From an uncultured Candidatus Saccharibacteria bacterium (lineage in GTDB: Bacteria > Patescibacteriota > Andersenbacteria > UBA10190): a stretch of DNA of 64,000 nt. Below the pieces are notes generated by a model. It was not told where the DNA came from and did no database searches. It saw nothing but the letters and a program-made list of their open reading frames with translations. This document shows positions 1-35,231 of the stretch, piece after piece; positions within the stretch are counted from its first letter, which is position 1, and each line of letters starts with the position of its first letter. The stretch spans positions 840-64,839 of the forward strand of contig CAYJQW010000004.1 of NCBI GenBank assembly GCA_964372635.1, given 5' to 3'. The translations under genes were made by a program, and so were the position numbers.

Positions 1-1
1 A

Positions 2-1138
2 GTGTTCCGAAAGATATTTAATAATGAAACAGCTTTACTGATTCTCGCTTTTACCTTCTTTTCTCCAATTTATCTAACTCAGCAACGGTTAGGCTGGGCG
101 ATCGCCCTATTTCCGTTTTTCTCAATGCTTATATTGTGGATATGGCTCAGTAAATTTCCGGGACGTAATTTTCTGCTCGGCCTGGTGGCTGGTTTGGCCT
201 TGCATAATCATATTTTATTTCTGCCAACGCTAGCAGCTTTAACTACTGTCGGAACGATTTTAGAGTTATCAAAACACGATCGCGTTAAGCGCCTGGTATC
301 ATACTGGCCTTCGGTCATAGGGTTTGTCATCGCTTTCAGTACACAGTGGCTGGTATTACGATCAGATACCGCAGACCAAGGTGAGCCATCGACAGTGGCT
401 AGTTTATTTTGGGAGAGGGTGCACGATTTACCATCAATCATTCCACTCGCGTTGTCAGGGTCATCGTATGTGGCACGGTACACCGGGTCCGAGTTTAGAC
501 CATGGGCTATATATACAATTCTCTCTGTAGTTATAATCTTGATTGTATTGTCAGGCACAATATCACGTTATCGGCGCGCCGCGCATTTCTGGGCTCTAGG
601 ATTAGTGATTCATTTAACGGTGCTTCTCATTATGATTGATCGCTTCACCCTGCGCTATTTCGTTATATTTACCTTGGGCACATGGGTCCTAGCGTCTGTC
701 GGCGGGGCCGCACTTATTGAGAAGGCGGCCGTTCGATTACGACAGTCAGGTTTATTACAGTTTAAAGCAATAGGCGTGTCCACCTTTTTTATTTTTTTAT
801 CAACCTGGCTTGTTCTGATACCGTTCCTTAAAACAGGTGGCAGTGTGGCTTCATTCTCTTTAGGTAATCGAACTAACAGCGCCGCTGATCTCGCTGCCCT
901 GGAGCCATTAATCACTTGTTTGCGCGGCCAAAGGACGGTCTCAAGTGAGAATGTCCACATTTATAATCGCCTGCAGTTTTTATCGCACCAGTATCCCGAT
1001 TTACAATTTTTACCGGAAGATCAGCTCGAGCAAGCGAATCTGCTTGTTTATTATCGTGATCCGATTGCAGCAATTCCTGTGGATAGGCAGCCATGTCCAG
1101 ACCTTACTAATTTCATCGTTGAGCGACACGACCGCTAA
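2..1138 (+). CDS. polytopic membrane protein, 5'-truncated by the window edge; probable C-terminal part of a GT-C-type membrane glycosyltransferase
   Basis: Open frame from the window edge with no start codon. It has several hydrophobic helices (e.g. LLILAFTFFSPIYL, AIYTILSVVIILIVL) followed by a soluble C-terminal domain. The membrane-core-plus-C-terminal-domain layout matches the other GT-C-like proteins in the locus. Confidence 0.4.
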   Translation: MFRKIFNNETALLILAFTFFSPIYLTQQRLGWAIALFPFFSMLILWIWLSKFPGRNFLLGLVAGLALHNHILFLPTLAALTTVGTILELSKHDRVKRLVSYWPSVIGFVIAFSTQWLVLRSDTADQGEPSTVASLFWERVHDLPSIIPLALSGSSYVARYTGSEFRPWAIYTILSVVIILIVLSGTISRYRRAAHFWALGLVIHLTVLLIMIDRFTLRYFVIFTLGTWVLASVGGAALIEKAAVRLRQSGLLQFKAIGVSTFFIFLSTWLVLIPFLKTGGSVASFSLGNRTNSAADLAALEPLITCLRGQRTVSSENVHIYNRLQFLSHQYPDLQFLPEDQLEQANLLVYYRDPIAAIPVDRQPCPDLTNFIVERHDR

Positions 1139-1185
1139 CACCGTCGCTGCTATAAAAAAAGTGCGTTTGACGGTGAACGAAATTA

Positions 1186-3138
1186 TTATCTTAAATTCAG
1201 GCGGCGCAGGATGACGAGGAGGGCAATTAAAATCGTCGCGACTGAAATCATTAAACCGGTACGATATCCTGGTGCTTTGTACTCAAAAACTAATTCACTT
1301 TGTCCGGCCGGCAGTGTCGCGGCGATGCGCCCACTGACATCAGTCGTCGGCTCACCATTAGCCAGCCAGCCGCGAGCGTAATTATTGTTTAAGATAATGT
1401 TTGTGTTATTTGAGAGGTTAGCTTTGACATTTATCTTATTTGGAGACCAGAAAAGCAGCTCAACTTTTGCGGCCGGGTTATCGGATGAAACAAAAGATTG
1501 GTTTTCCGGCTGCTGTTTGGTTACAACTGCTGGCGACGGACCAAGGACAGTGCAATAAGAAAGTGTGCCCCAGCCCTGCACGGTAAGCGGGTAGGCGCGC
1601 GTATAGTCAGCTCCCTCATAGCGAATTGTGTTTTTATCTAGTGTAAATTGCAGTGGCTTTTGGGCCGCCTGTATAGGCTCTTCCGGATACGGTAGAACGA
1701 AAGCTTGCTGCGATAACTGATAGGAAAGTGTCATTAAATCAATTGCCAGCAGCCCGAGGACGATACTGGCAATCAATTTGAGTCCAAAGGCTGAACGTCT
1801 TTTAAATATAGTCATCAACATATTATCGAGTCCCAGACCAGAGAGCAGTGCTATCGGCATAACTGCAAACAGAACAAGACGTGAAATGTTTGAGCGCGGT
1901 AAAAAGGCTACCTGATCAAAAAGCGGCTTTAGCACCGGCCCAGCTGAAGATATTAAAAGGGCAATAACCGAGCCAAGGACGAGCAGACGAACAAGACGAC
2001 TTGTTCTAAATTTATTTAGCGCAGCTATGGCAAGGACGAGCACAAGCGGGCCTACATAGGCGCCATATTCGTGCCAGCCACCACCTTGATTGAGAATCGT
2101 ATTATCACTGCCCGGGCCGTGTAGATAACGCCCTAGCAGAACCTTGTGTAGGGAAGTTAAGGTGCTGGTCGATGACGCGTAGACTTGGTCTTGAAATTGA
2201 CTGAGCCAATAAAGAACTGGCACTAATTTAATACTGGCCAATCCTAAGGCCCAAAAGCCCGACTTCAGACATATCATAAAAGCCCGACGGTGATTTTTGG
2301 CAACCGCAACCAAGAAAACAAATGCCCCGGCGGTATACATGAGCAGGTAAATTCCGCCTTGCAGAAAAGTCAGGGCAAGGAATAGTCCGCAGAGCAATGA
2401 CCAGCGGTTAAGACTCTTTGTTGAATCAAGATCACTCGTTGTTCGGTAGGCACTTACCCACGACCACAGAATCCACGGTATCCACATCGCCGATAAAATA
2501 TTTGTATGCCCTTCAACAATTTCCAGAATGTTGACACTGCTAAATGACACGGTCACAGCAGCAAGCATTGCACCGAAGACAGAGAGTCCCAGCCGTTTGC
2601 TTAAAATCAGAGTGCCAACTGCGCCAATGATCGTACTAAAATATATTGCTAGCCTCAGGCCAAGGGGTATGCCGAACAATAGTTCTAAAATAAAGGTTGG
2701 TGTAAAAAGTGGAAATTCAGGGTCACCGATGGCTGAAGTGCCGCCGCAGATATACGGATTCCATTGGGGAATACCGTCATAAGTTAAAGTCAGATTTCGG
2801 ACAATATAGTGATACGAAAAATAATAGTCCCAATCGGATATACCAAGTTGACCAGATGAAAACCAGAATCCTCCCATAGCAAGAGGGGTTATTATGACCA
2901 GCAGAATACTGGCTGCAATCCATCGAAATTTGTTTAGTCGGCTGATACCTAAAACACCACCGAAAAAAATCAAGCCTGTCAAAATGCCTTGCCTGATGCC
3001 AAAGCCTGTTAAACTAGCTTCGAATAAACTGTCAAATAATGAAGTTGTTGTTGGTCTGCTATTAGCGAGCCACCATAAAAAACCGATTAACAAGATAACT
3101 ATTCCGCTACCAAGTAATTTTATAAATCGAGATGCCAC
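1186..3138 (-). CDS. large polytopic membrane protein with GT-C-like architecture (YfhO/ArnT-like), function unassigned
   Basis: 650-aa ORF. About 14 predicted TM helices fill the first ~480 aa. The C-terminal ~170 aa are hydrophilic and beta-rich (likely extracytoplasmic). A loop motif GGTSAIGDPEFP resembles the GSGGDPWQ motif in the 28290..30404 protein. Confidence 0.5.
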   Translation of the reverse strand: MASRFIKLLGSGIVILLIGFLWWLANSRPTTTSLFDSLFEASLTGFGIRQGILTGLIFFGGVLGISRLNKFRWIAASILLVIITPLAMGGFWFSSGQLGISDWDYYFSYHYIVRNLTLTYDGIPQWNPYICGGTSAIGDPEFPLFTPTFILELLFGIPLGLRLAIYFSTIIGAVGTLILSKRLGLSVFGAMLAAVTVSFSSVNILEIVEGHTNILSAMWIPWILWSWVSAYRTTSDLDSTKSLNRWSLLCGLFLALTFLQGGIYLLMYTAGAFVFLVAVAKNHRRAFMICLKSGFWALGLASIKLVPVLYWLSQFQDQVYASSTSTLTSLHKVLLGRYLHGPGSDNTILNQGGGWHEYGAYVGPLVLVLAIAALNKFRTSRLVRLLVLGSVIALLISSAGPVLKPLFDQVAFLPRSNISRLVLFAVMPIALLSGLGLDNMLMTIFKRRSAFGLKLIASIVLGLLAIDLMTLSYQLSQQAFVLPYPEEPIQAAQKPLQFTLDKNTIRYEGADYTRAYPLTVQGWGTLSYCTVLGPSPAVVTKQQPENQSFVSSDNPAAKVELLFWSPNKINVKANLSNNTNIILNNNYARGWLANGEPTTDVSGRIAATLPAGQSELVFEYKAPGYRTGLMISVATILIALLVILRRLNLR

Positions 3139-3177
3139 AGATTGGAGTATAACGGTATTTGCTTCTAATCTAAACCT

Positions 3178-5043
3178 ATGTGTGGCATTGCAGGAATATA
3201 TCAGAAAAACCCATTAACCCTTGACGGAGCTATATTATCCGCAATGTCGGCACAACTTGCTCATCGCGGTCCAGATGATAGCGGTCAATTTATTGATAAA
3301 TCCTGTGGCTTAGCTCACCGGCGGCTGGCTATTATCGATCTTTCCGCTGCTGGACACCAGCCTATGACCACACCTGATGGACGCTATACCATTATATTCA
3401 ACGGTGAAATCTATAATTATCGTGAGTTAAGGCAGAAATTTTTATCACACCTACCTTTTGTATCAGAATCTGATACTGAAGTATTACTTAAATTGCTGGC
3501 CCAGCGTGGTGTAAAGGCCTTACCCCTTTTACGAGGCATGTTTGCCTTTGCTTTTTGGGATGCAAACAAACGAGAGCTACTTTTGGCAAGAGATCATTTC
3601 GGCAAAAAACCTTTATTTTATAGTGATCTTAAATCAACATTTGTTTTTGCCTCTGAACCGAAAGCGTTACTGCAGCATCCAGAAGTTTCAAACCATCTCG
3701 ACCTAAAAGCTGCCACCAAATATTTTCTGTATGAATATCCACCATCACCAGCGACCGGCTATCGTGATATTGCCCAGCTTCCCATGGGAAGCTATCTGTC
3801 CTTAACATCAACAGGTTTTAAGGTAAAACCATATTGGCAGATGACCACACAACCTAAGTTAAATTCCACGGAAAAAAACATTCTAAAAAGTCTTGATACG
3901 CTTCTCAATAAAGCAGTGGAGCGGCGATTAATTTCCGATAGACCAGTAGGGCTGTTCTTAAGTGGTGGTCTAGATTCGGCAACAATAGGCTGGTATATGC
4001 GGCAGCAAACCGCGAAACCACTACATTCCTTTAATGTTTCATTTAAAGAACCTTCTTTTAATGAATCAAGTTTTGCTAGACAAGTGGCAGAATCAATTAG
4101 TTTAGAACACCATGATATTCCCTTTACGGTTAATGAGTTTCGGAGCGCTCTTGAGGAAGTTGCACCTCTACTAGATATGCCGCTAGCTGATGCATCGTTA
4201 TTGCCCTGCTTTTTAATGAGCAAAGTGGCACGTCGGCATATTACCGTGGCGCTTGATGGCGACGGTGGCGATGAATTGTTTGGAGGTTACGGCACATTTA
4301 AAGCTGCCCGCGTGGCCAGCTGGTTTTCAACTGTTCCAAAATCAATTATCAAGCATTTTATGAATCCAGCCCTTGATTTCCTACCCACAAAATTTGACGA
4401 TTTTTCCTTTGATTTCAAAGTAAAAAAGTTTGCATCTGGGCTACCATATAGTCTGGGTAGGCGTAACCAAGTCTGGCTAGGCTCTTTTACTGACGTGGAA
4501 TTAAAGCATCTCTTAACTCCAAATTTACAGTCTTACGTTTCCGAAGTATTTACTGATGTCGATGAGGTTGCTCTCAAAATAAATAATTTATCGATAAGTG
4601 ATCAGGTATCATTACTCACCATTAGGCATTATTTACATAACGATATTTTAGTAAAGCTTGATCGCGCTACCATGTTTAATAGTGTCGAGGCCAGAACGCC
4701 TTTTTTAGATCTTGATCTAGCCGAATTTGCTCTGCGTCTTCCCGATAGATGGAAACGTGATAAATACATTCTAAAAAAATTGATGCAGAATAGAATTTCT
4801 GAGGTAATAATTAGACGACCCAAAAAGGGTTTCGGTATTCCACTTGGCTACTGGCTCAAAGGCCCGCTGTATGAATGGGCTGAGAGCATTCTCAGTGAGG
4901 AAGTTATAAAAAAGCAAAATATTTTGCAACCAGCATATGTCAGACGATTGTTAGCTGAACATCACACGGGCAGAGTGGACCATCGAAAAAAATTATGGAC
5001 GTTACTCACTTGGCAATTATGGTATAACCGGTGGGCAATATAA
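3178..5043 (+). CDS. asnB: asparagine synthase (glutamine-hydrolysing) family amidotransferase, AsnB/WbpS-like
   Basis: ATG verified at 3178. The N-terminus MCGIAGIY gives the class-II glutamine amidotransferase Cys2 nucleophile. An SGGLDS PP-loop ATP-pyrophosphatase motif is present (LFLSGGLDSATIG). The 621-aa length fits AsnB. Embedded in a glycan locus, it is more likely a glycan amidotransferase (WbpS-like) than the housekeeping enzyme. Confidence 0.8.
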   Translation: MCGIAGIYQKNPLTLDGAILSAMSAQLAHRGPDDSGQFIDKSCGLAHRRLAIIDLSAAGHQPMTTPDGRYTIIFNGEIYNYRELRQKFLSHLPFVSESDTEVLLKLLAQRGVKALPLLRGMFAFAFWDANKRELLLARDHFGKKPLFYSDLKSTFVFASEPKALLQHPEVSNHLDLKAATKYFLYEYPPSPATGYRDIAQLPMGSYLSLTSTGFKVKPYWQMTTQPKLNSTEKNILKSLDTLLNKAVERRLISDRPVGLFLSGGLDSATIGWYMRQQTAKPLHSFNVSFKEPSFNESSFARQVAESISLEHHDIPFTVNEFRSALEEVAPLLDMPLADASLLPCFLMSKVARRHITVALDGDGGDELFGGYGTFKAARVASWFSTVPKSIIKHFMNPALDFLPTKFDDFSFDFKVKKFASGLPYSLGRRNQVWLGSFTDVELKHLLTPNLQSYVSEVFTDVDEVALKINNLSISDQVSLLTIRHYLHNDILVKLDRATMFNSVEARTPFLDLDLAEFALRLPDRWKRDKYILKKLMQNRISEVIIRRPKKGFGIPLGYWLKGPLYEWAESILSEEVIKKQNILQPAYVRRLLAEHHTGRVDHRKKLWTLLTWQLWYNRWAI

Positions 5044-5096
5044 TAATCGAGCAAACCTACTATCTCTTTGACTACTTTTAGCTTAACCTTCTTGCC

Positions 5097-6722
5097 GTGG
5101 CGTCATACAATAATGACATGACAACTATCAGCGGATGGCGTGTACTTATGTTAAAACTAAGAAGTTGGCCGGCTGTTGGACAAGAAAGTTCAATAAGGAG
5201 TTTCACAGAACGATTCTTACGAATTCTTATTTGGGTTTTGCCGTGGCTCGTGATAGCTGTTTTCACCTACATTTACATCTGGCTTGGTTTTTACAATGAA
5301 TTGCACTTAAGAAACGGTGTCGATCTCGGGACTTATAATCAGCTTCTCTATAATTTGTCATCAGGCCATAGCTTTCCACCGTTTAACAGTCTTAAAAATC
5401 AGATCGCCTGGGGTGATCATGCTCACTTCATTGTTATCTTGTTGACCCCGGTGTATTACCTTTTTCCAAGCTATCTGACTGTCATTGCTCTCCAGGTGTT
5501 AGCTATTACTACATCGGCTTGGGCATTATATAGCATTGCCCAGAAAACGATCAGGAACTATATATTTTCATATGTTATTCTATTCTCCTATCTTTTATTT
5601 TTTGGTGTTCAGTACGCTTTAAATTTTGATTTTCATCCCAATGTCTTAACAGCTGCTATTTTAGCTTGGAGTTTATATGCTCTTCATTTCAGAAAATGGC
5701 TGCTTTATTGGTTAGTATTCATATTAGGACTCCTAACGCGTGAAGATGCCGCAACCTTCTATGTCATGATCGGAGTTTATCTAGTGTTATTCCGACCAAG
5801 TATACCATTTGCTAAACGATGGACAGGAATAACTTGGGATAGTGTTAAAACTGTGGGGCTTGTGACCATTATCTTGGCGGGAGCATACTTCATTGGGGTG
5901 GTGTATTATCTTATGCCTCTCTGGCAACCAGATAATACAGCGCTGGCCTATTTTGATATTCCTGATAGCGCGCGTACGCCATTAGCCATCCTTTATTGGA
6001 TTGCAGGTAATCCAATTACGGTTATCCAAAACATGTTTGACACTTCCGCCAAAGTCAGCACGATCAGAAACCTGTTTCAATCATTTGGTTTTATACCCTT
6101 AATCACTCCGTTTACCTATTTAACAATCTTGCCAAACTTCCTCGCTCGATTTTTAAGTGGCGAAGAGCAGCGGCACATGACGCAGTTTCACTATGGAGCC
6201 AGCCTTGTGTCCCTACTGTCTTACGGTTCAATTCTAACAACTGTATTATTACAAAGGTCAGTCAAACATCTCTGGCAAAAAGTTATGAGGCAACAGCCGG
6301 TCTGGTCCTCTTTTATTATATCTACAGCAGTAGCAGCCTTGATATTTTTTGGTACATACACCGTGTCATTGCGTGATATTGATCTGCCTATTCACAGGCT
6401 TTATGATCGGGATTTTATTGAGCTTAAGTCTTTACCGCGCCCGGCTCGCGCCGCACTTGATGTTATGCGCCGGATCATTCCCGAAGAGGCTAGTGTGTCG
6501 GCGGCCAGCGGCTTAGTGCCAGCTCTATCTTCGCGGGAAAAAATATATAATTTTCCAGATGGACTGGAAACTTCTGTCGATTGGATCGTTTTGAGTGATG
6601 AGGGGAATACCTGGCCCTATCACAATGCTGAAATGAAAACGGCCATTAAAGAATTGCGTTTAAATTCCGACTATATTTTATCTTTTGATAACTACGGCAT
6701 TGTGGCCTTTAAGAAGAGATAA
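5097..6722 (+). CDS. DUF2079-like polytopic membrane protein (putative GT-C-type transferase)
   Basis: 541 aa with at least 10 TM helices. The N-terminal loop GVDLGTYNQLLYNLSSG resembles the DUF2079 signature DLG.F.Q..WN. The C-terminal ~120 aa are soluble. The GTG at 5097 may not be the true start; the first ATG is at 5118. Confidence 0.45.
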   Translation: MASYNNDMTTISGWRVLMLKLRSWPAVGQESSIRSFTERFLRILIWVLPWLVIAVFTYIYIWLGFYNELHLRNGVDLGTYNQLLYNLSSGHSFPPFNSLKNQIAWGDHAHFIVILLTPVYYLFPSYLTVIALQVLAITTSAWALYSIAQKTIRNYIFSYVILFSYLLFFGVQYALNFDFHPNVLTAAILAWSLYALHFRKWLLYWLVFILGLLTREDAATFYVMIGVYLVLFRPSIPFAKRWTGITWDSVKTVGLVTIILAGAYFIGVVYYLMPLWQPDNTALAYFDIPDSARTPLAILYWIAGNPITVIQNMFDTSAKVSTIRNLFQSFGFIPLITPFTYLTILPNFLARFLSGEEQRHMTQFHYGASLVSLLSYGSILTTVLLQRSVKHLWQKVMRQQPVWSSFIISTAVAALIFFGTYTVSLRDIDLPIHRLYDRDFIELKSLPRPARAALDVMRRIIPEEASVSAASGLVPALSSREKIYNFPDGLETSVDWIVLSDEGNTWPYHNAEMKTAIKELRLNSDYILSFDNYGIVAFKKR

Positions 6723-18180: not shown

Positions 18181-18205
18181 AGTCTCTCTCTTGTATAAGG
18201 GAGTC

Positions 18206-21926: not shown

Positions 21927-21966
21927 GAAGATTATTCTGACTGATTCATGCTACATTGTCGACATT

Positions 21967-25291: not shown

Positions 25292-25432
25292 GCATAGGTT
25301 GTTCTATTAGATTGAGTCTAGCATTATTAAGAGAATTCAATTTCAAACTAAATCACTAAAATAAGCATAGAGCTAAATTAAAATTTAACCGATGATTAAA
25401 AGAGTCCGGCAAAACTTTAGATCAGATATGGC

Positions 25433-26173: not shown

Positions 26174-26179
26174 TAGCCT

Positions 26180-27550
26180 TTACTCTGCTCCGATAACGCG
26201 AAACTTTGGCAAGGGAACTATAAATTTACCTCCATTTTCCAGATATTGACTTTCTCGGTTTTTGAATTCAGCTAGAAAGTGCCAGGGCAGTATTAAAAAG
26301 TAATCTGGATTGTCATCTCGAGCCTTTTTTTCAGAGATAATTGGAATGTTTGTTGATACCGTACGCTTACCCCATTTTGCCGGATTACGCTCCGCGGCAG
26401 CAGTGATAACCTTATGGTTAAGATTAAAATATTGTAAGAGCGTATTTCCTTTTGTTGATGCCCCATAAACATAAATAGTTTTACCTGTAGATTTTTCTTG
26501 AACGATGAAATCAACAACTTGCCTTTTAATCTGGGCGACACGATCCCTAAACAATTGATAGGGAATAGTTGTTGCCAGATGCATTGCATTTTCTTTAAAT
26601 CTGAGTTGAGCCAGACGCTCTGATGCACCGGAACGAGGTGGCAGCTTACTTCCCTTATGGGTAATAAATGTTCGATAGCTGCCACCATTAACATTGTTTA
26701 ATTCAACGTCAATAACTTTTAGATCATGTCTTTTGAGTAGAAATTCAAGTGAACTGAGCGAATAGTATTCCAAATGTTCATGACAAATATTATCAAAGAT
26801 GTTATCGGCTAGCATCACCGGTAAATAGGCCATCTGAATTATCCAAAGTCCATCCGGTGCCAAAATTTCTCTAATATCAGCTACAAATTCATTAGGTTGC
26901 TCGAGATCATAAAACATAGCAATACTAGTTACAGCCTGAGCCTTTACTTTTTTACCTACCTTATCTTTAAATAAGTTTGCCGTGAAGAAATCGTTGATGA
27001 TAGTTGCTGATGTATTCTTCGCATAGGGCATCAGATTTATTGCTGGCTCAAATCCAACTTTATTTAAATCTCGCACCTGATATGAATTTAGTAATGTGTT
27101 GTCATTGCTACCCGTGTCCACCACGATACTATTCTTTGTTAGGGGAATTAATTCAGCTACACTTTTTGTAATATCAGCCAGAGCAACGCGCATAGTTTGG
27201 TTAACGCCTGAACGATACCAGTAATTACGATACATATACTGCTGATCTACAGTATGTTTAAGCTGAAGTAATCCGCAGCCGTTTCGACTCGGATCGCACA
27301 AGATAAGTTCCAAAGGTGCACTGGGAGTCAGACTATTCTTAGAAACGAAATCTGAAATACTTTGTACTCCCAATGACAGCACAGGCACAAGCATAGTCCC
27401 GCCACAAACGCGGCAGTTTGTGCGTGTAGTCACAGACAGATTAGTCTTGTGAGTAAGACTTACTGAGGACGTTTTGAGTTGTGGAGCAGCCGTTGTTATA
27501 GTAATCGACAGTATACTTATGAACACGCCAGTCGTAAAATCAGCGACCAA
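26180..27550 (-). CDS. SAM-dependent C-methyltransferase-like protein with N-terminal Cys-x2-Cys zinc-ribbon (TylCIII/NDP-hexose C-methyltransferase family)
   Basis: CRVCGGTMLVPVLSLGVQSISDF matches the N-terminal putative zinc-binding domain of the TylCIII-type family. The methyltransferase motif VVDTGSNDNTLLNSY follows, with a C-terminal methyltransferase extension domain (FIVPLPKFRVI). The track start at 27550 is TTG and overlaps the divergent gene. A GTG at 27433 would give M-TTRTNCRVCGG, matching family N-termini, so the true start is uncertain. Confidence 0.55.
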   Translation of the reverse strand: MVADFTTGVFISILSITITTAAPQLKTSSVSLTHKTNLSVTTRTNCRVCGGTMLVPVLSLGVQSISDFVSKNSLTPSAPLELILCDPSRNGCGLLQLKHTVDQQYMYRNYWYRSGVNQTMRVALADITKSVAELIPLTKNSIVVDTGSNDNTLLNSYQVRDLNKVGFEPAINLMPYAKNTSATIINDFFTANLFKDKVGKKVKAQAVTSIAMFYDLEQPNEFVADIREILAPDGLWIIQMAYLPVMLADNIFDNICHEHLEYYSLSSLEFLLKRHDLKVIDVELNNVNGGSYRTFITHKGSKLPPRSGASERLAQLRFKENAMHLATTIPYQLFRDRVAQIKRQVVDFIVQEKSTGKTIYVYGASTKGNTLLQYFNLNHKVITAAAERNPAKWGKRTVSTNIPIISEKKARDDNPDYFLILPWHFLAEFKNRESQYLENGGKFIVPLPKFRVIGAE

Positions 27551-28226
27551 TCACAAATGGGAACGTATTTGGGATGATGTTTGGCGAACAGGAGCTGCCG
27601 GCCGCACCATTTCGTGGTTACGTCAAAGGTATAGTGCGATGCTTTTGCATGTTATCAAGCCTTACTTAAAGTCTCAGGCACATGTACTTGAACTTGGATC
27701 AGGAACGGGGACATTACTACTTTCCTTAGCAGAAGATATAACTGAAGGAGTAGGTCTAGATATTTCCAATGAGGCCATTGCCATTGCTAACAAGAACCTG
27801 CAAAAAAAACTAGTTAAGAATATAAGTTTCATTAAGGCTGACTGCCGCCACGTACCTTACCAAGGACGATTTGACGTAGTGTACAGCGCTGGCCTGATTG
27901 AACATTTTTTTGCGCAAGACATTGAAATTGTTCGGCAGCATCTTAAGGCAGCAAAACCGGGAGGAACTGTTGTAATCAGTGTGCCTTATGCCTATTCCTT
28001 ACACAGTTTGCATTATATGCTGACACGGCCACGTTTATCACGATGGCTTTGGCCTTGGTCACGCGAGCGCAATTTTCAACTTTTTTATTCTCGTCAGCGT
28101 CTGCGCCGACTAGCACTAAATGTTAGCCACTCCCACAGAATTTTCCTGCTTCCACCCTGGCCTGTCGGTTTGTTATTGGGAATTATTGTTCTTGTCATCA
28201 ATAAAAAAGAAAATATTCAGGTGTGA
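27519..28226 (+). CDS. class I SAM-dependent methyltransferase
   Basis: ATG verified at 27519 (MNTPVV); the track start at 27474 is TTG. Motif I VLELGSGTGTLLLSL and AKPGGTVVISVP. A C-terminal hydrophobic segment (LLPPWPVGLLLGIIVLVI) suggests a membrane anchor. Confidence 0.7.
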   Translation: MNTPVVKSATNHKWERIWDDVWRTGAAGRTISWLRQRYSAMLLHVIKPYLKSQAHVLELGSGTGTLLLSLAEDITEGVGLDISNEAIAIANKNLQKKLVKNISFIKADCRHVPYQGRFDVVYSAGLIEHFFAQDIEIVRQHLKAAKPGGTVVISVPYAYSLHSLHYMLTRPRLSRWLWPWSRERNFQLFYSRQRLRRLALNVSHSHRIFLLPPWPVGLLLGIIVLVINKKENIQV

Positions 28227-28289
28227 CAATACCAGATTTATTTTATACGTCAAGTTTTTAGTGTAAGTAAATCATCATATAGTACGAAC

Positions 28290-30404
28290 ATGTCTAAAAT
28301 ACTTAAAAAGCACATTTCTGTGCTGATTTTGTATACAGCCCTAGTTCTGTTAATGACATTGCCAGTTGTCTTGAAGCTTACAACGCATGTCGCCGGATCA
28401 GGTGGCGACCCCTGGCAGACTATGTGGAGATTTGAAGATCGTCTGTCAGCGGCACAAGCAGCACGCGATAATTCTCAATTAGGACCATTTATCTTCCGAG
28501 AATTTCTTGGTGGTGGCGAACCGCGTCTAATCAACAATTCAGTTTGGCCATGGATGGGTCTTCATACGACCCTTGGAGAGCCCTTGGCTTATAATGTTGT
28601 TTGGTTGCTGTCTTATATCATGTCTGGATTCACCATGTGGCTGCTGACTAGATGTCTGATTCCGGCAAATAGGACATTTTCAATCCTAAATTTTAAATTG
28701 GCAAATAATGACATTGCAGCCATTATGGCTGGAATATTATATATGTTTGCCCCATATCATACCGCCCATTCCTTTGGTCATTTCGGCGCCATGCAAACTC
28801 AATGGCTGCCGCTGGCTATTCTTCTAACTCTTCTTTTCAAGGAGCGTCAGACATTTATACGTGCGCTTGGTTTAGTTGTCGTGTTGACGATCCAATCATG
28901 GAGTGAGCACCACTATCTGCTCTGGTATGCCCTGTTTGTTAGTCTTTATCTTGCTTGGCATTGGCAATATTTTCGACAGTTGACACTTAAACGCTCTAAA
29001 GTACTCCTTCAAACTTCATTCGTCATACTCTTACTTATATTAGTTCTACTGCCATGGTGGCCAACCGCTCGTCTGGCTTTTTCCGGGCAATCATCGCTTG
29101 TGTTAGGTAGTGATCAGACCATTCGATTTTCAGCTGATCTTTTTTCATATATTATTCCTGCTTCATTTCATCCCATATGGGGAGATGCTGCTAACACTTT
29201 ATTTGCTAAAAAATTTACTGGCAATGTTAGTGAAGCGACGCATTTTCTGGGCTGGGTGCCCCTCCTATTAGTTTTGTTCTTTCATCAGCGTATTCCAAGA
29301 AAGCATAAGATCTTTTGGGGTGTGGCGACATTAATATTCGGAATTATAAGCCTAGGACCACGATTGCATATTATCGGCCATATTTTGCCAATACCGCTCC
29401 CGTGGGCATTAATTGATTCCTGGCCCGTATTTAATGCAGTGCGCGCCGTTGGGCGAGCTAGTGTAATTGTTTTAATAGCCTTTTGTATATTATTCGGATG
29501 GGTGGTAGCGACTCAAATAAAACGACCTATAATATTCATACTGATAGGCACTGTCATTTTGCTTGAATTTCTCTTTATGCCCGTACCTTTGCAGTCAGCT
29601 ATATTGTCCGATGTTTACAAGACTGCAGCCAAACTTCCAGGATCAACCATAATTGAGTTGCCGGCTGCGACCAATTATACAGCAGCGTCGCGTGCGCTCT
29701 ATGCAGAAGGTATCCACCGCAAGTCTGTTATTGGGAATATTGCTCTCGAGCGATCTCTGGGCAACGATATTCTTGAAGAAATTCGCTCAATGCCGGCTCT
29801 GCGGCAACTCTTATATCTCCGGACGACTGATTTACAAGCACGGCGACCTGACTTTTTTAACCAAGAACTTAAAGAATCATTAGCCGATACTTTACGTAAA
29901 CTTGATGTTGGCGGTATTATTATTCATCTAGATTCATTATCGGCCTCGCAGGTTAGAATTACCCGAGACTTTCTTGAGCAAGATATAGGTTTTAGGCCAC
30001 AACCTTTTCAAGATGCCATTTTATATGAAGTACCTCAATCTTTTCGTGACAGTGGTGATGGTATTTTCATCAGTCGCGATAACCAGTGGGTCAATGTTCG
30101 ATCTGACATTGAACGTGGCACAGAGGCTTCGGTCGTACATGAAGCCTCGATTCGGCTTTTTAATACTAAAAACAAAGTAACTACGGTTGATTTGTCATAT
30201 ACTGTTGATTCTTCTTTGTCAGATCCACTTAATATCAGTGTCGGCAATAATGGCGGTAGTGATGTTTATTTAAGAAAGGATAATTCAGGCAGGTATGATT
30301 TTAGTATTGCAATCCCGGCTAACTCAAGAGTCATAATTTCATTTAGAAACAACATGACCCAGCCTGCTACTATTTTTGATCCACGCTTTATTGTGGCCAG
30401 ATAA
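28290..30404 (+). CDS. large polytopic membrane protein with C-terminal extracytoplasmic domain (GT-C-like), function unassigned
   Basis: 704 aa. About 13 TM helices fill the first ~430 aa. A first-loop motif HVAGSGGDPWQTMWRFED is present. The C-terminal ~270 aa are hydrophilic and beta-rich. Confidence 0.45.
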   Translation: MSKILKKHISVLILYTALVLLMTLPVVLKLTTHVAGSGGDPWQTMWRFEDRLSAAQAARDNSQLGPFIFREFLGGGEPRLINNSVWPWMGLHTTLGEPLAYNVVWLLSYIMSGFTMWLLTRCLIPANRTFSILNFKLANNDIAAIMAGILYMFAPYHTAHSFGHFGAMQTQWLPLAILLTLLFKERQTFIRALGLVVVLTIQSWSEHHYLLWYALFVSLYLAWHWQYFRQLTLKRSKVLLQTSFVILLLILVLLPWWPTARLAFSGQSSLVLGSDQTIRFSADLFSYIIPASFHPIWGDAANTLFAKKFTGNVSEATHFLGWVPLLLVLFFHQRIPRKHKIFWGVATLIFGIISLGPRLHIIGHILPIPLPWALIDSWPVFNAVRAVGRASVIVLIAFCILFGWVVATQIKRPIIFILIGTVILLEFLFMPVPLQSAILSDVYKTAAKLPGSTIIELPAATNYTAASRALYAEGIHRKSVIGNIALERSLGNDILEEIRSMPALRQLLYLRTTDLQARRPDFFNQELKESLADTLRKLDVGGIIIHLDSLSASQVRITRDFLEQDIGFRPQPFQDAILYEVPQSFRDSGDGIFISRDNQWVNVRSDIERGTEASVVHEASIRLFNTKNKVTTVDLSYTVDSSLSDPLNISVGNNGGSDVYLRKDNSGRYDFSIAIPANSRVIISFRNNMTQPATIFDPRFIVAR

Positions 30405-30468
30405 TTAAACGCCATTGTTGGACATTTAACCTCTTTCATGTTCAGATGCGGTATTAGCAAATCATGAT

Positions 30469-31626
30469 ATGAAAATACTAATTTTTAACTTTGAATATCC
30501 GCCTCTCGGCGGCGGCGGCGGCGTGGCGACGAAACAATTAGCGGAAGAATTGGCCAAACGTCATGATGTGATGGTTGTCACCAGTAGTCATAAAGGGCTT
30601 GCAACCAGTGAGAATATTGCTGGTGTCGAAATTAGAAGGGTGTCAATTTATCCACGTCATGAACTAGCAACCGCCACACTTCTTTCCATGATCAGCTTTG
30701 TACCGATGGCCTTTTTTGCGGGATTACGAATCATTCGACAGCATCGGCCAGATGTTATCAACGCTCAGTTTGCCATTCCATCAGGATTGCCAGTCGCTTG
30801 GTTGGCGAGACTGTATCATCTTCCTTTTGTCTTAAGCTTTGTGGGTGGCGATTTATATGATCCAACTAAAGGCATTTCCCCACATCGCCATTTTACTTTA
30901 AGAATGCTGGTGCGGCATGTTGCAGCTGCGGCAACTATTTGTACGGCAATATCTAGTGACACTAAAAAACGAGCGAAGGATCTTCACTTGGTGAAAAATA
31001 AGATTATTGTTACACCTTTGGGTTTAATTCCTAAACTAGAAGCTAACTCTTTAAGGACACCCCAGCAATTGTCTTCGCCTCTTCCAGCTTTTGTGTCCAT
31101 TGGACGTCTGATTCATCGCAAGGGGTATGAGCAGCTCTTAGATGCCTGGCAGCAAGTAACAGGTGCTCAGCTCGTTATCGCTGGGCAAGGGCCATTACAT
31201 AAACGACTTCAAGGGCGAGCGCACGAACTAGGTATTTCTGACAGAGTGAATTTTTTAGGATTTGTGTCAGAAATTCAGAAACAGCGCTTACTAGCCGAGA
31301 GTTTTGGTTATGTCTCAGCGGCACGGCATGAAGGCTTCGGTATCGTGTATTTAGAAGCAATGCAGGCTGGTTTGCCGATTGTCTCAACCAATGATGGTGG
31401 CCATAACGATTTTCTGATTAATAATAAAAACGCACTTCTGGTTGCGCCGAACGACACAGCAGGACTAGCTAAGTCTGTAAATTGGCTTCTCAAAAATCCA
31501 GAGCAAGCCAAAGCGATGGGTAATATTAATCGCGTCAAAGTGAAAGATTTTTATATTCAGAAGACCACTGCTCGGTTTGAGGAAGTTCTTGTTCAGGCTA
31601 TCCGTAGTCCCATTCTCGCCCCATGA
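30469..31626 (+). CDS. GT4 family glycosyltransferase
   Basis: ATG at 30469. The N-terminus MKILIFNFEYPPLGGGGGVATKQL is typical of GT4. The EX7E motif is ARHEGFGIVYLEAMQAGLPIVSTNDGG. Confidence 0.85.
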   Translation: MKILIFNFEYPPLGGGGGVATKQLAEELAKRHDVMVVTSSHKGLATSENIAGVEIRRVSIYPRHELATATLLSMISFVPMAFFAGLRIIRQHRPDVINAQFAIPSGLPVAWLARLYHLPFVLSFVGGDLYDPTKGISPHRHFTLRMLVRHVAAAATICTAISSDTKKRAKDLHLVKNKIIVTPLGLIPKLEANSLRTPQQLSSPLPAFVSIGRLIHRKGYEQLLDAWQQVTGAQLVIAGQGPLHKRLQGRAHELGISDRVNFLGFVSEIQKQRLLAESFGYVSAARHEGFGIVYLEAMQAGLPIVSTNDGGHNDFLINNKNALLVAPNDTAGLAKSVNWLLKNPEQAKAMGNINRVKVKDFYIQKTTARFEEVLVQAIRSPILAP

Positions 31627-32714
31627 TCAAAGTCGCGCTTGAAGCTCGTGCCTTGCGGCAGCCTGGGGGAGGAGTGCGCAGCTACGTTGAACATCTTTAT
31701 AAGGGTCTTCAAGTAAACCCAGACATTACCGTTAATGTTTTCAAAGATACAAGATTCAAAAAAATGATTCCCTTCTGGCTTAACTGGTATATTCCTTGGC
31801 AAGTGAAGAAATTGCAGCCTGATGTGGCCCATTTCACTAAGGCGGCCCTACCCAGTCGGTTAGCCTGTCCATCGATTGTGACAATCTATGACATCATTCC
31901 TATTTTGTTTCCTCAGTCGCAAAAGATCCTGGCCAGAATGTATTGGCCGCGAGCCTTACGGCATGCAGCACAAGCGAGCGATCATATTATTACTATTTCG
32001 GAAAGAAGTAAGGCCGACATCATCAAGTATTTAGGTGTCACAGCTCACAAGGTGACCGTTATACCACTCGGGATTGATACATCCTTCTTTAAGCCGGCAT
32101 CTGAAGAAGATATAGCGTTAATCAAAGATCGCTTTCGACTACCTAAAAAATACATCCTTTACGTTGGCACTATTGAGCCACGCAAGAATATCCCCGCATT
32201 AATCAGAAGTCTGGCCCAGATTGCGTCTGACATTCCGCATAAACTTGTCATTGCCGGCAGAAACTATAAGGGATTAGAAAGTATCAAATCTGAAATCAGG
32301 CGTCTTGATCTGTCGGATCGCGTGATATTTCTTAATTTTGTTAAGTCCGAGTATTTGCCGGCACTTTATTCAGGAGCCGAGCTCTTTATGTGGCCGTCTA
32401 TCTATGAAGGGTGGGGATTTCCACCGCAGGAAGCCATGGCTTGCGGCACACCGGTTATCGTCAGCGACGGCGGGTCGCTACCAGAGGTTGTGGGTAATGC
32501 TGGTATTATTCAAAAGTTTACAGTTAATGCGCTAAATGATCGTCTTTGTGACAGTGTCTTTGAAAATATGTTTGCCAGGGAAGTACAACTATTACTTAGC
32601 GACACCGCGCGACGAAAAGATATGAGTGCTCAAGGATTGAAGCACGTTACAAAATTTTCATGGCAGGAAGTTATAGACCGCACGATTGGAGTTTATAAAA
32701 AAATAATTGTTTAA
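31623..32714 (+). CDS. GT4 family glycosyltransferase
   Basis: YEGWGFPPQEAMACGTPVIVSD is the EX7E motif. A 4-bp ATGA overlap with the upstream GT4 indicates translational coupling. Confidence 0.85.
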   Translation: MIKVALEARALRQPGGGVRSYVEHLYKGLQVNPDITVNVFKDTRFKKMIPFWLNWYIPWQVKKLQPDVAHFTKAALPSRLACPSIVTIYDIIPILFPQSQKILARMYWPRALRHAAQASDHIITISERSKADIIKYLGVTAHKVTVIPLGIDTSFFKPASEEDIALIKDRFRLPKKYILYVGTIEPRKNIPALIRSLAQIASDIPHKLVIAGRNYKGLESIKSEIRRLDLSDRVIFLNFVKSEYLPALYSGAELFMWPSIYEGWGFPPQEAMACGTPVIVSDGGSLPEVVGNAGIIQKFTVNALNDRLCDSVFENMFAREVQLLLSDTARRKDMSAQGLKHVTKFSWQEVIDRTIGVYKKIIV

Positions 32715-32728
32715 GTATTTGTTGAACT

Positions 32729-33868
32729 ATGAAAGTGGCTTATCTTAGTAATGCAGACCGTAATACCGGCATTGGACTACGTGTTAGTGAAATTGGCCAC
32801 CGTCTGCAGGCAAATAAGCATATATCCTTGGATCATATTCATTTGAACGGGGAAATGGGCGTAGTTCAGACAGACTCGTCAGTTATAGTTGCGAAAAAGA
32901 CTTGGCCGGGACCGCTGCGGGCTAAGTCAGTAATGTGGGTGCGTCTGGGTAGAGCCATCTTGCCAAGGCTACGTTCATATAATCTTATCCACTTAACCAG
33001 TCAGAATCTTAGTTTTTTGGCCAGAAAAGATATTCCGACAGTTATCACTGTCCATGATTTAATTGAAATCATGGAGCCCCAGGATTGGCGAGCGGCGCTG
33101 CTTAATAATTATCTCTACAGCGGATTAAAGCGGGCCAAACATATAATTGCGGTTTCTCAATATACGAAACAAACAATCACTGAACGATATGGAATCAGTA
33201 AAGAAGACGTTTCTGTGATATATAACGGTGTTGGCCAAGAGTTTTATCATATTAAACATTTTGACCAATCTGTTAGTCGTCAGACCCTACGGCATGAGCT
33301 AAAATTGCCGGACCAGGCCATGGTCGTCTTATATGTTGGTTCTGAACATGCCCGCAAGAACATTTCGACCGCGCTGCAAGCCTTCTTACAGGCAAGCGAA
33401 TCAATCGGAAAAGACAAACTCTGGTTCATTAAAGTTGGCAATCCTGGTTTGGCCGCTGGGCGTGCTCAAACGCTGTCAGAAATCGAACGACTAGGGATTA
33501 AAAGGCAAGTAATCTTACTCAGAGCAGTCTCAGAGCAGCGTCTCAATGAATTGTATAATCTCGCCGACGTGTTAGTTTACCCATCACGTTTTGAAGGCTT
33601 TGGATTACCACCACTGCAGGCGATGGCAGCTGGAACCCCAGTTATTACTTCTAATGTAACCTCATTACCAGAAGTTGTTGGTGGTGCTGCTATTACGCAC
33701 GATCCGGACGATACATCTGCCTTCGCCAAGTCAATTATCGAGGTATTATCAGATAAAGATAAAGCATCAATTTTAAGAAAAAAGGGTCTAGTTAGAGCTC
33801 GCCAATTCTCCTGGGATAGGGCGGCTCAAGAAATTGCTGCCCTATATCACCATTTATCTGGTATTTGA
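32729..33868 (+). CDS. GT4 family glycosyltransferase
   Basis: [22 protein letters not shown]; 379 aa. Confidence 0.8.
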
Positions 33869-33941
33869 TAATAATTTACAGTTTTTACATTAAACGAAAG
33901 ATTATTGACATTCAACTAATCGTCATGCAACTGTCAACGCA

Positions 33942-35186
33942 ATGAGGATTTTATTTTTATCGTCTCTGTATCCGCCAGTGACCAAGGGTGGTGGAGAGAT
34001 TTCGACACATCTTATTGCGCAGGGTTTAATCATGCAAGGGCATGATGTTTTAGTTGCAACAGAGGGTAAAATGCATGAAAAAAAGATCATCAACGGTGTG
34101 CCCGTTGAGAATTTTGCTGTTCCGTTGACAGCTAAGCCTCTTTTTGAGAGAGCTCACGCTCGTCGCGTTGCGGCGAATTTAGAAAAGGCAATAAATTGGA
34201 AATCGTTTGATATAATACATGCCCACGACTTACGTACAGCTCAGATTATTTCTGAGTTAATTGCGGATGGCATAATTCAAGCAAAGCGATCATTAGTGAC
34301 TGCCCGAGACTATGGACAAATCTGCGGCTCACCCAACAATTTGATGTTTAACGGCACAACATGTCCTGGTTGCGAGCAGCTTCGTAGCGTTATTCGTAAC
34401 CAAGCAGTTGTTGAGGCACCGCTTTATCGTAAACCGTTTCGAATTTGGCAATACTGGCACAATATTGACTACAGGTTAAGCTCCTTTAGATCTTTTCCCC
34501 GGCAGATTTTTATTTCGAGCGCACAACGAACGGAAATTTCCCGTCGTCAAGATTTATCAAAGACTCAAACTCATATTATCTATAATCCAGTTCCGCCGTC
34601 ATACCTAAATACCCCGCTACAACAAGGAGATCAAAAAATATTATTATACGCGGGAAATCTTAACTCTTATAAAGGCACAGATATTCTCCTTGAGGCTTTT
34701 AAGGAGATCGCTCATGATGATAAAGAAATTCAGTTAATTATGGTTGGTGATGGATCTAGCCGCTATCGATATGATCAATATGTTGCTCAAAACGGTTTGA
34801 ACGGGCAAGTCAGATTATATGGACATGTGGCATGGGCCGATATGATGGCCTTGTATGATTCCGCCCGTATTGTTGTCGCCCCGCATGTTTGGGTGGAGCC
34901 TTTCGGCCGGACTGTAGCTGAGGCCATGGCACGGGGAAAATTGGTTATTACTTCCCGTAGCGGCGGACCGGCCGAAATGATTATCGACAACGAGCGAGGT
35001 TTTCTCGTTAAGCCTAATCACGTTAAAGACTTAACATCTAAAATTCGCTTGGCGCTTGATTTGCCTCAAAATAGAGCGGTTACCATTGGTCAAGCAGCTC
35101 AGACCTGGGCAGCTGGCCATCTTTCGGTATATAAGATCACGCATCAACATAAAAACGTTTATCAAGAAATGCTAACTAAGTTATAA
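33942..35186 (+). CDS. GT4 family glycosyltransferase
   Basis: N-terminus MRILFLSSLYPPVTKGGGE; VEPFGRTVAEAMARGKLVITSRSGGPAEMI; 414 aa. Confidence 0.8.
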   Translation: MRILFLSSLYPPVTKGGGEISTHLIAQGLIMQGHDVLVATEGKMHEKKIINGVPVENFAVPLTAKPLFERAHARRVAANLEKAINWKSFDIIHAHDLRTAQIISELIADGIIQAKRSLVTARDYGQICGSPNNLMFNGTTCPGCEQLRSVIRNQAVVEAPLYRKPFRIWQYWHNIDYRLSSFRSFPRQIFISSAQRTEISRRQDLSKTQTHIIYNPVPPSYLNTPLQQGDQKILLYAGNLNSYKGTDILLEAFKEIAHDDKEIQLIMVGDGSSRYRYDQYVAQNGLNGQVRLYGHVAWADMMALYDSARIVVAPHVWVEPFGRTVAEAMARGKLVITSRSGGPAEMIIDNERGFLVKPNHVKDLTSKIRLALDLPQNRAVTIGQAAQTWAAGHLSVYKITHQHKNVYQEMLTKL

Positions 35187-35231
35187 AAAACCGCGCTCTA
35201 GATACGCGGTATGCCGGTACGTTAGTTTTTT
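35185..35231. terminator. intrinsic terminator-like hairpin between convergent genes
   Basis: aaaaaACCGCGctctagataCGCGGTatgccggtacgttagtttttt: a 6-bp GC stem with 9-nt loop, an A-run upstream and a T-run downstream. It could act bidirectionally for the + GT4 gene and the - 125-aa ORF. Confidence 0.45.

Follow-up and report, generated by a model that had tools for sequence, protein, structure and literature searches.

A conserved glycan island rich in GT-C membrane proteins and methyltransferases in an Andersenbacteria genome

The DNA considered here is a stretch of 64,000 nucleotides from an uncultured bacterium of the Andersenbacteria, a lineage of the Patescibacteriota (GenBank assembly GCA_964372635.1, contig CAYJQW010000004.1, positions 840 to 64,839), and we call the whole of it the window. 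Its first 35,200 positions hold 25 genes, 10 of which encode large polytopic membrane proteins of the GT-C type of glycosyltransferase (GT); the open reading frames (ORFs) of these proteins cover 52.7% of these 35.2 kb, and GT-C, at about 40% of the genes, is the most numerous gene class. Around them stand four class-I S-adenosylmethionine (SAM) methyltransferases (MTs), one C-methyltransferase of the Methyltransf_13/14 kind, two short GT2 proteins without transmembrane (TM) segments and an AsnB-type amidotransferase, all identified by domain scan, together with a short-chain dehydrogenase/reductase (SDR) and five GT4 enzymes. Coding is dense, and GC content is uniform (0.40-0.46), without a break in skew. 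Glycan genes continue past position 35,200, and a single glycan island takes up all 64 kb of the window. What are these membrane proteins, and what might so many of them be building together? Below, ORFs are named by their lower coordinate in the window (15013, for example, is 15013-16515).

Ten membrane proteins of the GT-C type

A reading made from the sequence alone had described ten polytopic membrane proteins with GT-C architecture in this region. All ten are found where it placed them, and there is now evidence of GT-C identity for each, in several grades. Four pass a Pfam cutoff by themselves: 15013-16515 (PMT_2, 35.2 bits vs. a cutoff of 26.1), 21925-23463 (PMT, 29.4 bits vs. 22.7; 30% identical to 15013), 23525-25291 (PMT_2, 41.5 bits vs. 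26.1) and 5097-6722 (DUF2079, PF09852, E = 2.3e-46, 159 bits vs. 28.2), the last in a family that we take to belong to the GT-C clan. Two more are carried by their orthologs: 11753-14173, which matches PMT_2 weakly itself and is a paralog of 23525 (27% identity over 607 amino acids [aa]), has three of four orthologs above the PMT_2 cutoff, and the truncated ORF at 2-1138 has a full-length ortholog that matches PMT_2 (E = 2.6e-8) at its residues 60-192, a part absent from the window. Five ORFs in all thus reach a PMT or PMT_2 gathering score, directly or through orthologs; 18206-19840 does not (PMT, 21.1 bits, with no Pfam match among its orthologs), and it is joined to the others by profile-profile comparison, in which hhalign aligned the 18206 family (profile A4) with the 15013 family (profile A1) over 363 columns at a probability of 95% (E = 2.4e-8). 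Because PMT_2 also covers ArnT-like enzymes, a match to it is no proof of membership in family GT39.

The remaining three, 1186, 6709 and 28290, have no Pfam match of their own up to an E value of 10, and a NCBIfam search of the membrane ORFs yielded nothing useful. Orthologs of 6709 (39-43% identical) match YfhO at 53, 41 and 30 bits (cutoff 28.5), and many homologs of 1186 (46-53% identical) carry precomputed matches to PF09586 (YfhO) or PF10131 (PTPS_related). By rough hydropathy (our script over-splits TM helices and was used for gross architecture only), 6709 has an extracytoplasmic loop of about 430 aa before its last TM segment, and 1186 has a loop of 157 aa before its C-terminal one; a loop in this position is the YfhO architecture described in PMC5836110. 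The family of 28290 (profile A2) matches no solved GT-C by sequence, and the structures that its AlphaFold2 (AF2) model matches best include AftD and AftA. For 15013, the AF2 model has a predicted local distance difference test score of 91, and its top 37 Foldseek matches in the PDB are all GT-C enzymes, with STT3 and ArnT (5f15/5ezm) ranked above Pmt4. Structural likeness to solved GT-C enzymes is thus present for both proteins modeled, and the GT-C plan, a polytopic core of about 8-13 TM helices with an extracytoplasmic domain at the C terminus or in a loop, appears in both models and, as far as rough hydropathy can tell, in all ten proteins, whose soluble domains (C-terminal or penultimate) span 100-430 aa. 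A transporter reading of these ORFs was rejected because of the structural matches.

We conclude that all ten membrane ORFs are GT-C; a transferase role is predicted from sequence and models. They appear to fall into at least five subfamilies: PMT_2/ArnT-like with a DE(P) motif, YfhO-like, DUF2079, divergent PMT-like and one without Pfam coverage.

GT-C enzymes carry an acidic motif (DxD, DE, DD or a single Asp) in the first extracytoplasmic loop, and here every one of the nine full-length ORFs has an acidic residue soon after TM1. Two of them, and no others, have the motif DEP, as had been read from the sequence (15013 at residue 37 and 21925 at residue 45). The others have DE (11753 at 251, after the core TM1, and 23525 at 42), DD (6709 at 46), GGD40PW (28290), GDAF (18206), GVDLG (5097) or SDWDY (1186). 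In 15013, D37 and E38 are invariant across 27 homologs, and an acidic residue is invariant in alignments A1, A2 (D40 of 28290) and A4. The DEP loop of 15013 is probably extracytoplasmic, because in relatives a GT2 domain is fused to the N terminus of the GT-C and GT2 domains are cytoplasmic, which puts that N terminus inside and the loop outside; homology agrees.

Conservation and synteny

An alignment-based genome scan found related loci (a scan with a single protein gave none), and in 81 related loci (numbered with the prefix L), ORFs were called and compared with the window proteins. The best named matches are metagenome-assembled genomes (MAGs) of Candidatus Andersenbacteria and Patescibacteria, and many Andersenbacteria MAGs hold syntenic one-to-one orthologs at 35-70% protein identity. 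The conserved block runs GT4 19983, MT 21189, GT-C 21925, GT-C 23525, an MT, GT-C 18206, SDR 17170, GT2 16512, GT-C 15013, MT 14177, GT-C 11753, a 172-aa protein and the YfhO-type 6709. Within it, the ORFs of the operon 18206-17170-16512-15013-14177 abut or overlap, and the same genes follow one another in the same order, whichever the strand, in L001, L002 and L005; the GT4-MT-GT-C triad is kept in the window and in L002-L005. A second block, 28290 with four GT4s, a GT9 and a further GT4, is kept in L009.

Because the orthologs are syntenic and the GC content is uniform, we regard the locus as a vertically conserved part of the core and not as a serotype island that varies from strain to strain; a horizontally acquired island was considered and rejected on the same two grounds. 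The locus is no one-off, since Andersenbacteria have it as part of their conserved core, and it takes in the whole window. The sequence-only reading had set it apart from a standard Wzy-type cluster, and no Pfam match to Wzy_C, Wzz or a Bac_transf/MraY-type initiator occurs anywhere in the window, in which two polytopic proteins have no class.

The next relatives of 15013, at 25-30% identity, are in Chloroflexota, where tandem GT-Cs are common. A Caldilineaceae locus (L070:918-13846) reads AsnB-MT-MT-(28290-like x2)-(PMT-like x2), and a Chloroflexaceae locus (L036:7309-17995) has a similar cluster with MT genes, tandem 28290-like GT-Cs, PMT-like GT-Cs and a DUF2079-like gene. AsnB lies together with MT and GT-C genes in loci of both Chloroflexota and the candidate phyla radiation (CPR), and the combination is common to the two.

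Short GT2 proteins and their fusions

The two short GT2s, 16512 and 25433, show no TM segment by hydropathy, and their best NCBIfam matches are AglJ, PpgS, Dol-P-hexose transferase and ArnC, all far below the equivalog cutoffs. They are candidate polyprenyl-phosphate-sugar synthases, as had been proposed: such synthases are what they most resemble, and 16512 is fused to a GT-C in relatives.

The fusions deserve a closer look. At one and the same place in the conserved gene order, the window and L001 have two genes, GT2 16512 and GT-C 15013, where L002 and L005 have a single GT2(N)-GT-C(C) gene. Fusion proteins of this kind, 705-729 aa long, occur in many relatives (P0006, P0007, P0012, P0015, P0020, P0021 and others); P0021 is 66% identical to GT2 16512 over its residues 1-222 and 50% identical to GT-C 15013 across 98% of the query. 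Such joining suggests that donor synthesis is coupled to transfer outside. A gene fragment of the GtrA_DPMS_TM family lies in the related locus L002.

Methyltransferases and their partners

MT and GT-C genes had also been seen to recur in pairs, three of them immediately adjacent. Adjacency is real, yet it is not above chance in the window, because 40% of the genes are GT-C: all four class-I MTs have a GT-C neighbor, with 2.6 expected from shuffled gene orders (P = 0.17). Only 14177/15013 overlap (by 4 nt, on the same strand); 10558 and 11753 lie 100 bp apart, and 21189 and 21925 are divergent. Two MT/GT-C pairings are kept in synteny. As a marker of functional pairs, then, adjacency was rejected, being at chance level when the fusions point to GT4.

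Those fusions came from an exhaustive HMMER search with MT 14177, which at E <= 1e-3 returned 5708 representatives, of which 130 still pass at E <= 1e-10. Among its multidomain relatives are GT4-MT (five proteins), MT-SDR, MT-GT2, LpxK-MT, LPG_synthase_TM-MT and MT-MT arrangements, and P0364 joins an ortholog of GT4 19983 (59% identity) to an ortholog of MT 14177 itself (50% identity). On account of these proteins, we place the class-I MTs in glycan or glycolipid biosynthesis, with a cytoplasmic GT-B enzyme as the closest partner; the 19983-14177 fusion suggests that methylation belongs among the cytoplasmic steps. That the MTs would act on glycans rather than on rRNA or tRNA was part of the sequence-only reading, and it is borne out by the homology of the C-methyltransferase and by the fusions of the 14177 family to GT4, GT2, NDP-sugar SDR and LpxK domains.

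For the individual MTs, the matches are less telling. MT 10558 has generic NCBIfam matches, all below cutoffs, and a PDB sequence search with MT 14177 and MT 21189 found generic or structural-genomics methyltransferases and UbiG only. The order MT 27474/C-methyltransferase/GT2 is kept in L003, and GT2/C-methyltransferase also in L004.

Three of these ORFs (10558, 26180 and 27474) were called from the start that makes them longest (GTG/TTG), which probably lies too far upstream. In related loci, the MT ORFs most like 10558 (32-37% identity) are 235-256 aa long, PDB homology of 26180 begins at residue ~40, and MT 27474 likely starts at the ATG at 27519; with shorter starts, the apparent overlap of 26180 and 27474 disappears.

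Sugar-tailoring enzymes

The C-methyltransferase 26180 matches the mycarose C-methyltransferase 4rv9 over its full length (3e-53), TcaB9 over residues 39-452 (1.5e-39) and KijD1 too, and it has the domains PF08421, PF13489 and PF08484, that is, an N-terminal zinc-binding domain, a class-I MT domain and a C-terminal Methyltransf_14 domain. With likeness over the full length and both signature Pfam domains, it is firmly predicted to be a nucleoside diphosphate (NDP)-hexose 3-C-methyltransferase; TcaB9, KijD1 and the mycarose enzyme sit in antibiotic gene clusters, whereas 26180 sits in an envelope glycan island. SDR 17170 is closest to guanosine diphosphate (GDP)-6-deoxy-D-lyxo-4-hexulose reductase (2pk3, 4e-56) and GDP-heptose 4,6-dehydratase (7us5, 2e-55), and we predict with similar firmness a GDP-6-deoxy-sugar enzyme. 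Methylated, possibly branched, 6-deoxy sugars are plausible components of the glycan.

Two GT9 genes, 35685-36839 (-) and 42128-43180 (-), resemble lipopolysaccharide heptosyltransferases, in a CPR bacterium that presumably has no outer membrane; the first reaches 117 bits against TIGR02195 (cutoff 134.6), and the second has a short Glyco_transf_9 match only (47 residues, 25.1 bits, cutoff 22). Taken with the likeness of the SDR to GDP-heptose 4,6-dehydratase, they hint at heptose-containing glycans. A TagB/TagF-like protein of the glycerophosphotransferase family (40016-41236 [-]) adjoins a polysaccharide deacetylase (39351-40007 [-]), and the two suggest that the island may also make a teichoic-acid-like or phosphodiester-linked component.

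AsnB 3178 matches TIGR01536 at 453 bits, above the cutoff. Peptidoglycan-related genes are embedded among the glycosyltransferases, namely MurJ (45053-46627 [-]), a Cu-oxidase_4/PgeF-like gene (55216-55947 [+]) and SpoIID (58138-59568 [+]), and for this reason AsnB could also serve in peptidoglycan amidation.

A pilin-like gene between the GT-Cs

Between the 806-aa PMT_2-type and the YfhO-type GT-Cs, its usual site, lies a gene (9567-10085) whose protein has an N-terminal hydrophobic helix and four conserved Cys in an alignment of eight orthologs (profile A3). Residues 7-61 of the profile align to the alpha-1 helix of pilins (9egp, E = 4e-4; also 2m7g, 7tgg and 6xxd), and the invariant E9 falls on pilin Glu5. 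No conserved Gly stands before the helix in any of the eight orthologs, so that the G-1 prepilin cleavage motif is missing from all of them. A Cys-Thr-x-Ser/Thr stretch is conserved after the helix, and the gene directly adjoins a GT-C in 13 of the 13 loci that have it. The protein could be a glycan acceptor or a filament subunit.

Flippases, unclassified membrane proteins and the remaining features

Candidate flippases in the island are MurJ and two Wzx-like proteins, one of which (60849-63503 [+], 884 aa) is a Wzx-type (Polysacc_synt_3) flippase domain with a C-terminal GT4 domain. Two polytopic proteins lack a family: 48921-51248 (-), of 775 aa, which is translationally coupled to a Wzx-like flippase, and 53426-55231 (+), of 601 aa, which has a short sub-threshold DUF6798 match only. 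Comparison of both with profiles A1 and A2 by hhalign was negative, as was a PDB search with 48921; they could be Wzy/ligase-like proteins or additional GT-Cs. Table 1 lists the features of the window. A 155-aa ORF at 12904-13371 (-), antisense to and wholly within GT-C 11753-14173, is most likely spurious.

Table 1. Features of the window, with coordinates, strand and main basis of the assignment
Feature	Position	Strand	Basis
C-terminal part of PMT_2-type GT-C, N terminus beyond the window	2-1138	+	Ortholog L014:9839-11269, 45% identity
YfhO/PTPS_related-like GT-C, 650 aa, large loop before last TM	1186-3138	-	
AsnB-type glutamine amidotransferase	3178-5043	+	Asn_synthase 1.5e-89, GATase_6/7
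DUF2079 polytopic membrane protein, GT-C type, 541 aa	5097-6722	+	PF09852
YfhO-family GT-C, 963 aa	6709-9600	-	YfhO matches of orthologs
Type-IV-pilin-like protein, 172 aa, conserved	9567-10085	-	Profile A3
Class-I SAM MT	10558-11652	+	Methyltransf_11/31/25/23
PMT_2-type GT-C, 806 aa, extra ~200-aa N-terminal domain	11753-14173	+	Orthologs
Class-I SAM MT, last of five-gene operon	14177-15016	-	Methyltransf_23 3e-16
PMT_2/ArnT-like GT-C, 500 aa, invariant DEP loop	15013-16515	-	PMT_2, AF2 fold
Short TM-less GT2, candidate polyprenyl-phosphate sugar synthase	16512-17207	-	Glycos_transf_2 2.6e-34
Predicted GDP-sugar SDR, Rmd/GDP-heptose 4,6-dehydratase-like	17170-18243	-	GDP_Man_Dehyd 1e-66
Divergent PMT-like GT-C, 544 aa	18206-19840	-	hhalign A4 vs. 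A1
GT4 (GT-B) glycosyltransferase, most conserved gene of the block	19983-21182	+	66-71% identity in relatives
Class-I SAM MT in conserved GT4-MT-GT-C triad	21189-21926	-	
PMT-type GT-C, 512 aa, DEP loop, paralog of 15013	21925-23463	+	PMT
PMT_2-type GT-C, 588 aa	23525-25291	-	PMT_2 2e-10
Short TM-less GT2, candidate polyprenyl-phosphate sugar synthase	25433-26173	+	
Predicted NDP-hexose 3-C-methyltransferase	26180-27550	-	Methyltransf_14 1.4e-45, Methyltransf_13
Class-I SAM MT, C-terminal TM anchor (TM 223-241)	27474-28226	+	Likely start 27519
GT-C, 704 aa, family without Pfam coverage, C-terminal beta-sandwich	28290-30404	+	
Four tandem GT4 glycosyltransferases	30469-35186	+	
Rest of island: GT9 x2, GT4 x5, GT2 x4, polysaccharide deacetylase, TagF-like, MurJ, two Wzx-like flippases (one GT4-fused), two unclassified polytopic proteins, PgeF-like, SpoIID	35685-63503		

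Discussion

We think it rather probable that this locus serves an Andersenbacteria bacterium as its core factory of cell-envelope glycan and that it runs on the known logic of polyprenyl-phosphate sugars and GT-C enzymes. From the families, folds, synteny and fusions described above, we infer the donors, the order of the steps, the site of methylation and the acceptor as follows. In the cytoplasm, GDP- and NDP-sugars would be tailored by SDR 17170, the 3-C-methyltransferase 26180 and the AsnB-type amidotransferase. GT4, GT9 and GT2 enzymes would assemble a lipid-linked glycan or glycolipid, with the class-I MTs adding O-methyl groups at the same stage as the GT4s work, and the short TM-less GT2s (16512 and 25433) would load polyprenyl phosphate with single sugars. 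The lipid-linked sugars would then be flipped, with MurJ and the Wzx-like proteins as candidates, and at the outer face, the ten GT-Cs would move sugars onto a surface acceptor. A polysaccharide or lipoglycan associated with the wall is the likeliest acceptor, and the pilin-like protein encoded next to the GT-Cs may be another. A more detailed picture can be drawn in which Andersenbacteria, being ultra-small and presumably monoderm, build a lineage-specific surface lipoglycan or a glycosylated pilin-like filament with O-methylated, 3-C-methyl-branched 6-deoxy sugars, at least ten GT-Cs acting outside, the donor synthase physically coupled to its transferase and a GT2-GT-C unit handing its lipid-linked sugar across the membrane with no need of a dedicated GtrA flippase; we consider this picture unlikely.

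Several observations weigh against the envelope glycan factory. The roles given to these families are predictions from sequence and fold. No solved Pmt, ArnT, STT3 or other GT-C is matched by profile A1 at the sequence level, so that its subfamily assignment rests on Pfam and fold. GT2s and GT4s alike miss the NCBIfam equivalog cutoffs, the four class-I MTs have generic matches only, and edges between neighboring MT and GT-C genes number 5, with 3.2 expected (P = 0.16, 100,000 shuffled gene orders). A GtrA-type flippase was not seen among the window ORFs from 55 aa upward (of the intergenic ones, only three were translated, for visual inspection without a Pfam scan), and an initiating phosphoglycosyltransferase, which would point to the primer, was not found in the Pfam scans of the window; that primer may be a glycolipid or a polyprenyl diphosphate.

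Might the GT-C array instead serve mainly to glycosylate proteins? PMT- or TfpW-like GT-Cs would then decorate the pilin-like protein from polyprenyl-phosphate donors, and S-layer proteins or further pilins might be decorated as well. The pilA-tfpW pair of Pseudomonas is a precedent for pilin glycosylation by a GT-C, and the five ORFs that pass PMT/PMT_2 cutoffs themselves or through orthologs, the constant place of the pilin-like gene next to a GT-C and its conserved Cys-Thr-x-Ser/Thr stretch all fit; pilin glycosylation has in addition been predicted in Patescibacteria (PMC11623550). Yet ten GT-Cs, some ten GT4 and GT9 enzymes, a TagF-like protein, a deacetylase and Wzx/MurJ proteins far exceed what pilin glycosylation needs, and the acceptor proposed lacks the G-1 cleavage motif. 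Pfam scans found no MIR or other protein-binding domain in the GT-Cs, ArnT, which modifies lipid A, belongs to PMT_2 as well, and the related Chloroflexota clusters do without the pilin-like gene. On balance, protein O-glycosylation as the main task seems to us rather unlikely.

An ordinary, variable Wzx/Wzy-dependent island of the O-antigen or capsule kind is quite improbable. Here, the GT-Cs would be side-chain decorators of the seroconversion type, and some of the unclassified membrane proteins would be the Wzy or ligase. The window does have two Wzx-like flippases, many GT4 and GT2 genes and a deacetylase, the polytopic 48921-51248 and 53426-55231 could be Wzy-like, and three-component systems are classically decorators (PMC11127046). 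Against this stand the one-to-one orthologs that keep their order, at 35-70% identity, in many MAGs, a pattern that one would not expect of serotype loci, and with them the Wzy_C, Wzz and initiator matches missing from the Pfam scans, the lack of any compositional anomaly and the sheer weight of GT-Cs, which outnumber the other classes and account for 53% of the 35 kb.

Very improbable, finally, is the idea that several of the GT-C-fold proteins are non-catalytic and serve as accessory, flippase-associated or lipid-carrier-handling proteins (Agl23-like or PIG-U-like), leaving fewer catalytic GT-Cs: a match of 15013 to TIGR03663 (Agl23, flippase activity-associated) and the GtrA flippase not seen in our limited look speak for it, but that match reaches 21.6 bits when the cutoff is 126, D37/E38 and D40 are invariant in two deeply aligned families, an acidic residue stands in all nine full-length ORFs and the best structural matches are catalytic enzymes.

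How does the proposed envelope glycan factory compare with systems that are already understood? In three-component systems (GtrA/GtrB/GtrC, CsbB-GtcA-YfhO and the pentofuranose systems), a GT2 makes a polyprenyl-phosphate monosaccharide, and a GT-C transfers the sugar outside (PMC11127046, PMC5836110). The locus shares with them a co-operonic GT2/GT-C pair (16512/15013) and YfhO-type members, and modification of the sugar before its transfer has a precedent there. It differs in setting ten GT-Cs against two to five candidate donor synthases, in GT2s that lack GtrB-type TM helices and are fused to a GT-C in relatives, in that no GtrA was seen in our limited look and in that it resembles a conserved line of core assembly more than an optional decoration. 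In mycobacterial lipomannan and lipoarabinomannan synthesis, GT-Cs use polyprenyl-phospho-mannose (PMC3485146). These pathways and arabinogalactan synthesis in mycobacteria and corynebacteria (PimA/B GT4s, Ppm1 and GT-Cs) have an inventory like that of the locus, with cytoplasmic GT4s, a TM-less Ppm1-like GT2 and many GT-C paralogs that share few lipid-linked donors, and their AftD and AftA resemble 28290 structurally. The likeness to Pim, Mpt, Emb and Aft proteins is one of inventory and fold, with all NCBIfam equivalog cutoffs missed, and the locus stands in another phylum and a tiny genome, with MTs, a C-methyltransferase and an amidotransferase interleaved.

The Arn operon, which makes the 4-amino-4-deoxy-L-arabinose (L-Ara4N) modification, likewise combines an SDR sugar-nucleotide enzyme, a GT2 (ours has ArnC-like matches), a tailoring enzyme and an ArnT-like GT-C, but no ArnB, ArnD, ArnE or ArnF was found at the locus, its tailoring enzyme is a methyltransferase and its match to PRK13279 (ArnT) is 17.8 bits for a cutoff of 567; to our knowledge, a presumably monoderm CPR cell has no lipid A. 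With the Ppm1/Pmt pair of Actinobacteria and TfpW of Pseudomonas, the locus has in common PMT/PMT_2 proteins with a DE motif, a nearby candidate polyprenyl-phosphate-sugar synthase and, next to the GT-Cs, a pilin-like gene; A1, however, has no sequence match to Pmt, the pilin-like protein is non-canonical and there are far more enzymes. The Ppm1/Pmt analogy drawn by the sequence-only reading survives as a family-level resemblance and nothing closer, and sequence does not decide between protein and polysaccharide as the acceptor. With the equivalog cutoffs missed and no solved GT-C matched by A1, the locus would not count as a demonstrated member of any characterized pathway. Most likely, its logic is the known one of lipid-phosphate sugars and GT-Cs, applied on an unusual scale and with uncharacterized enzyme families.

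The window genes are already deposited and automatically annotated in public databases. A description of GT-C-rich clusters in CPR was not found in the literature searched, a limited collection. What is unusual about the locus is the number and diversity of GT-Cs in a genome of probably ~1 Mb, along with a GT-C family that escapes Pfam, the joining of GT2 with GT-C and of GT4 with MT in relatives, a 3-C-methyltransferase in an envelope context and the embedded pilin-like gene. For those who would take the biochemistry further, it offers as handles the GT2/GT-C and GT4/MT pairs that are fused in relatives, the GT-C family that Pfam does not see, the envelope 3-C-methyltransferase and the pilin-like candidate acceptor.

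Much of bacterial diversity belongs to the CPR/Patescibacteria, and their cell-surface chemistry is hardly characterized, although those in cultivation live attached to other microbes (PMC11623550). The AsnB, MT and GT-C clusters that they share with Chloroflexota bear on the common envelope biology of two monoderm lineages. If the genome is indeed ~1 Mb, a size taken from the longest contigs of its relatives, the island would fill several percent of it, and its product would be central to the lifestyle of these bacteria.

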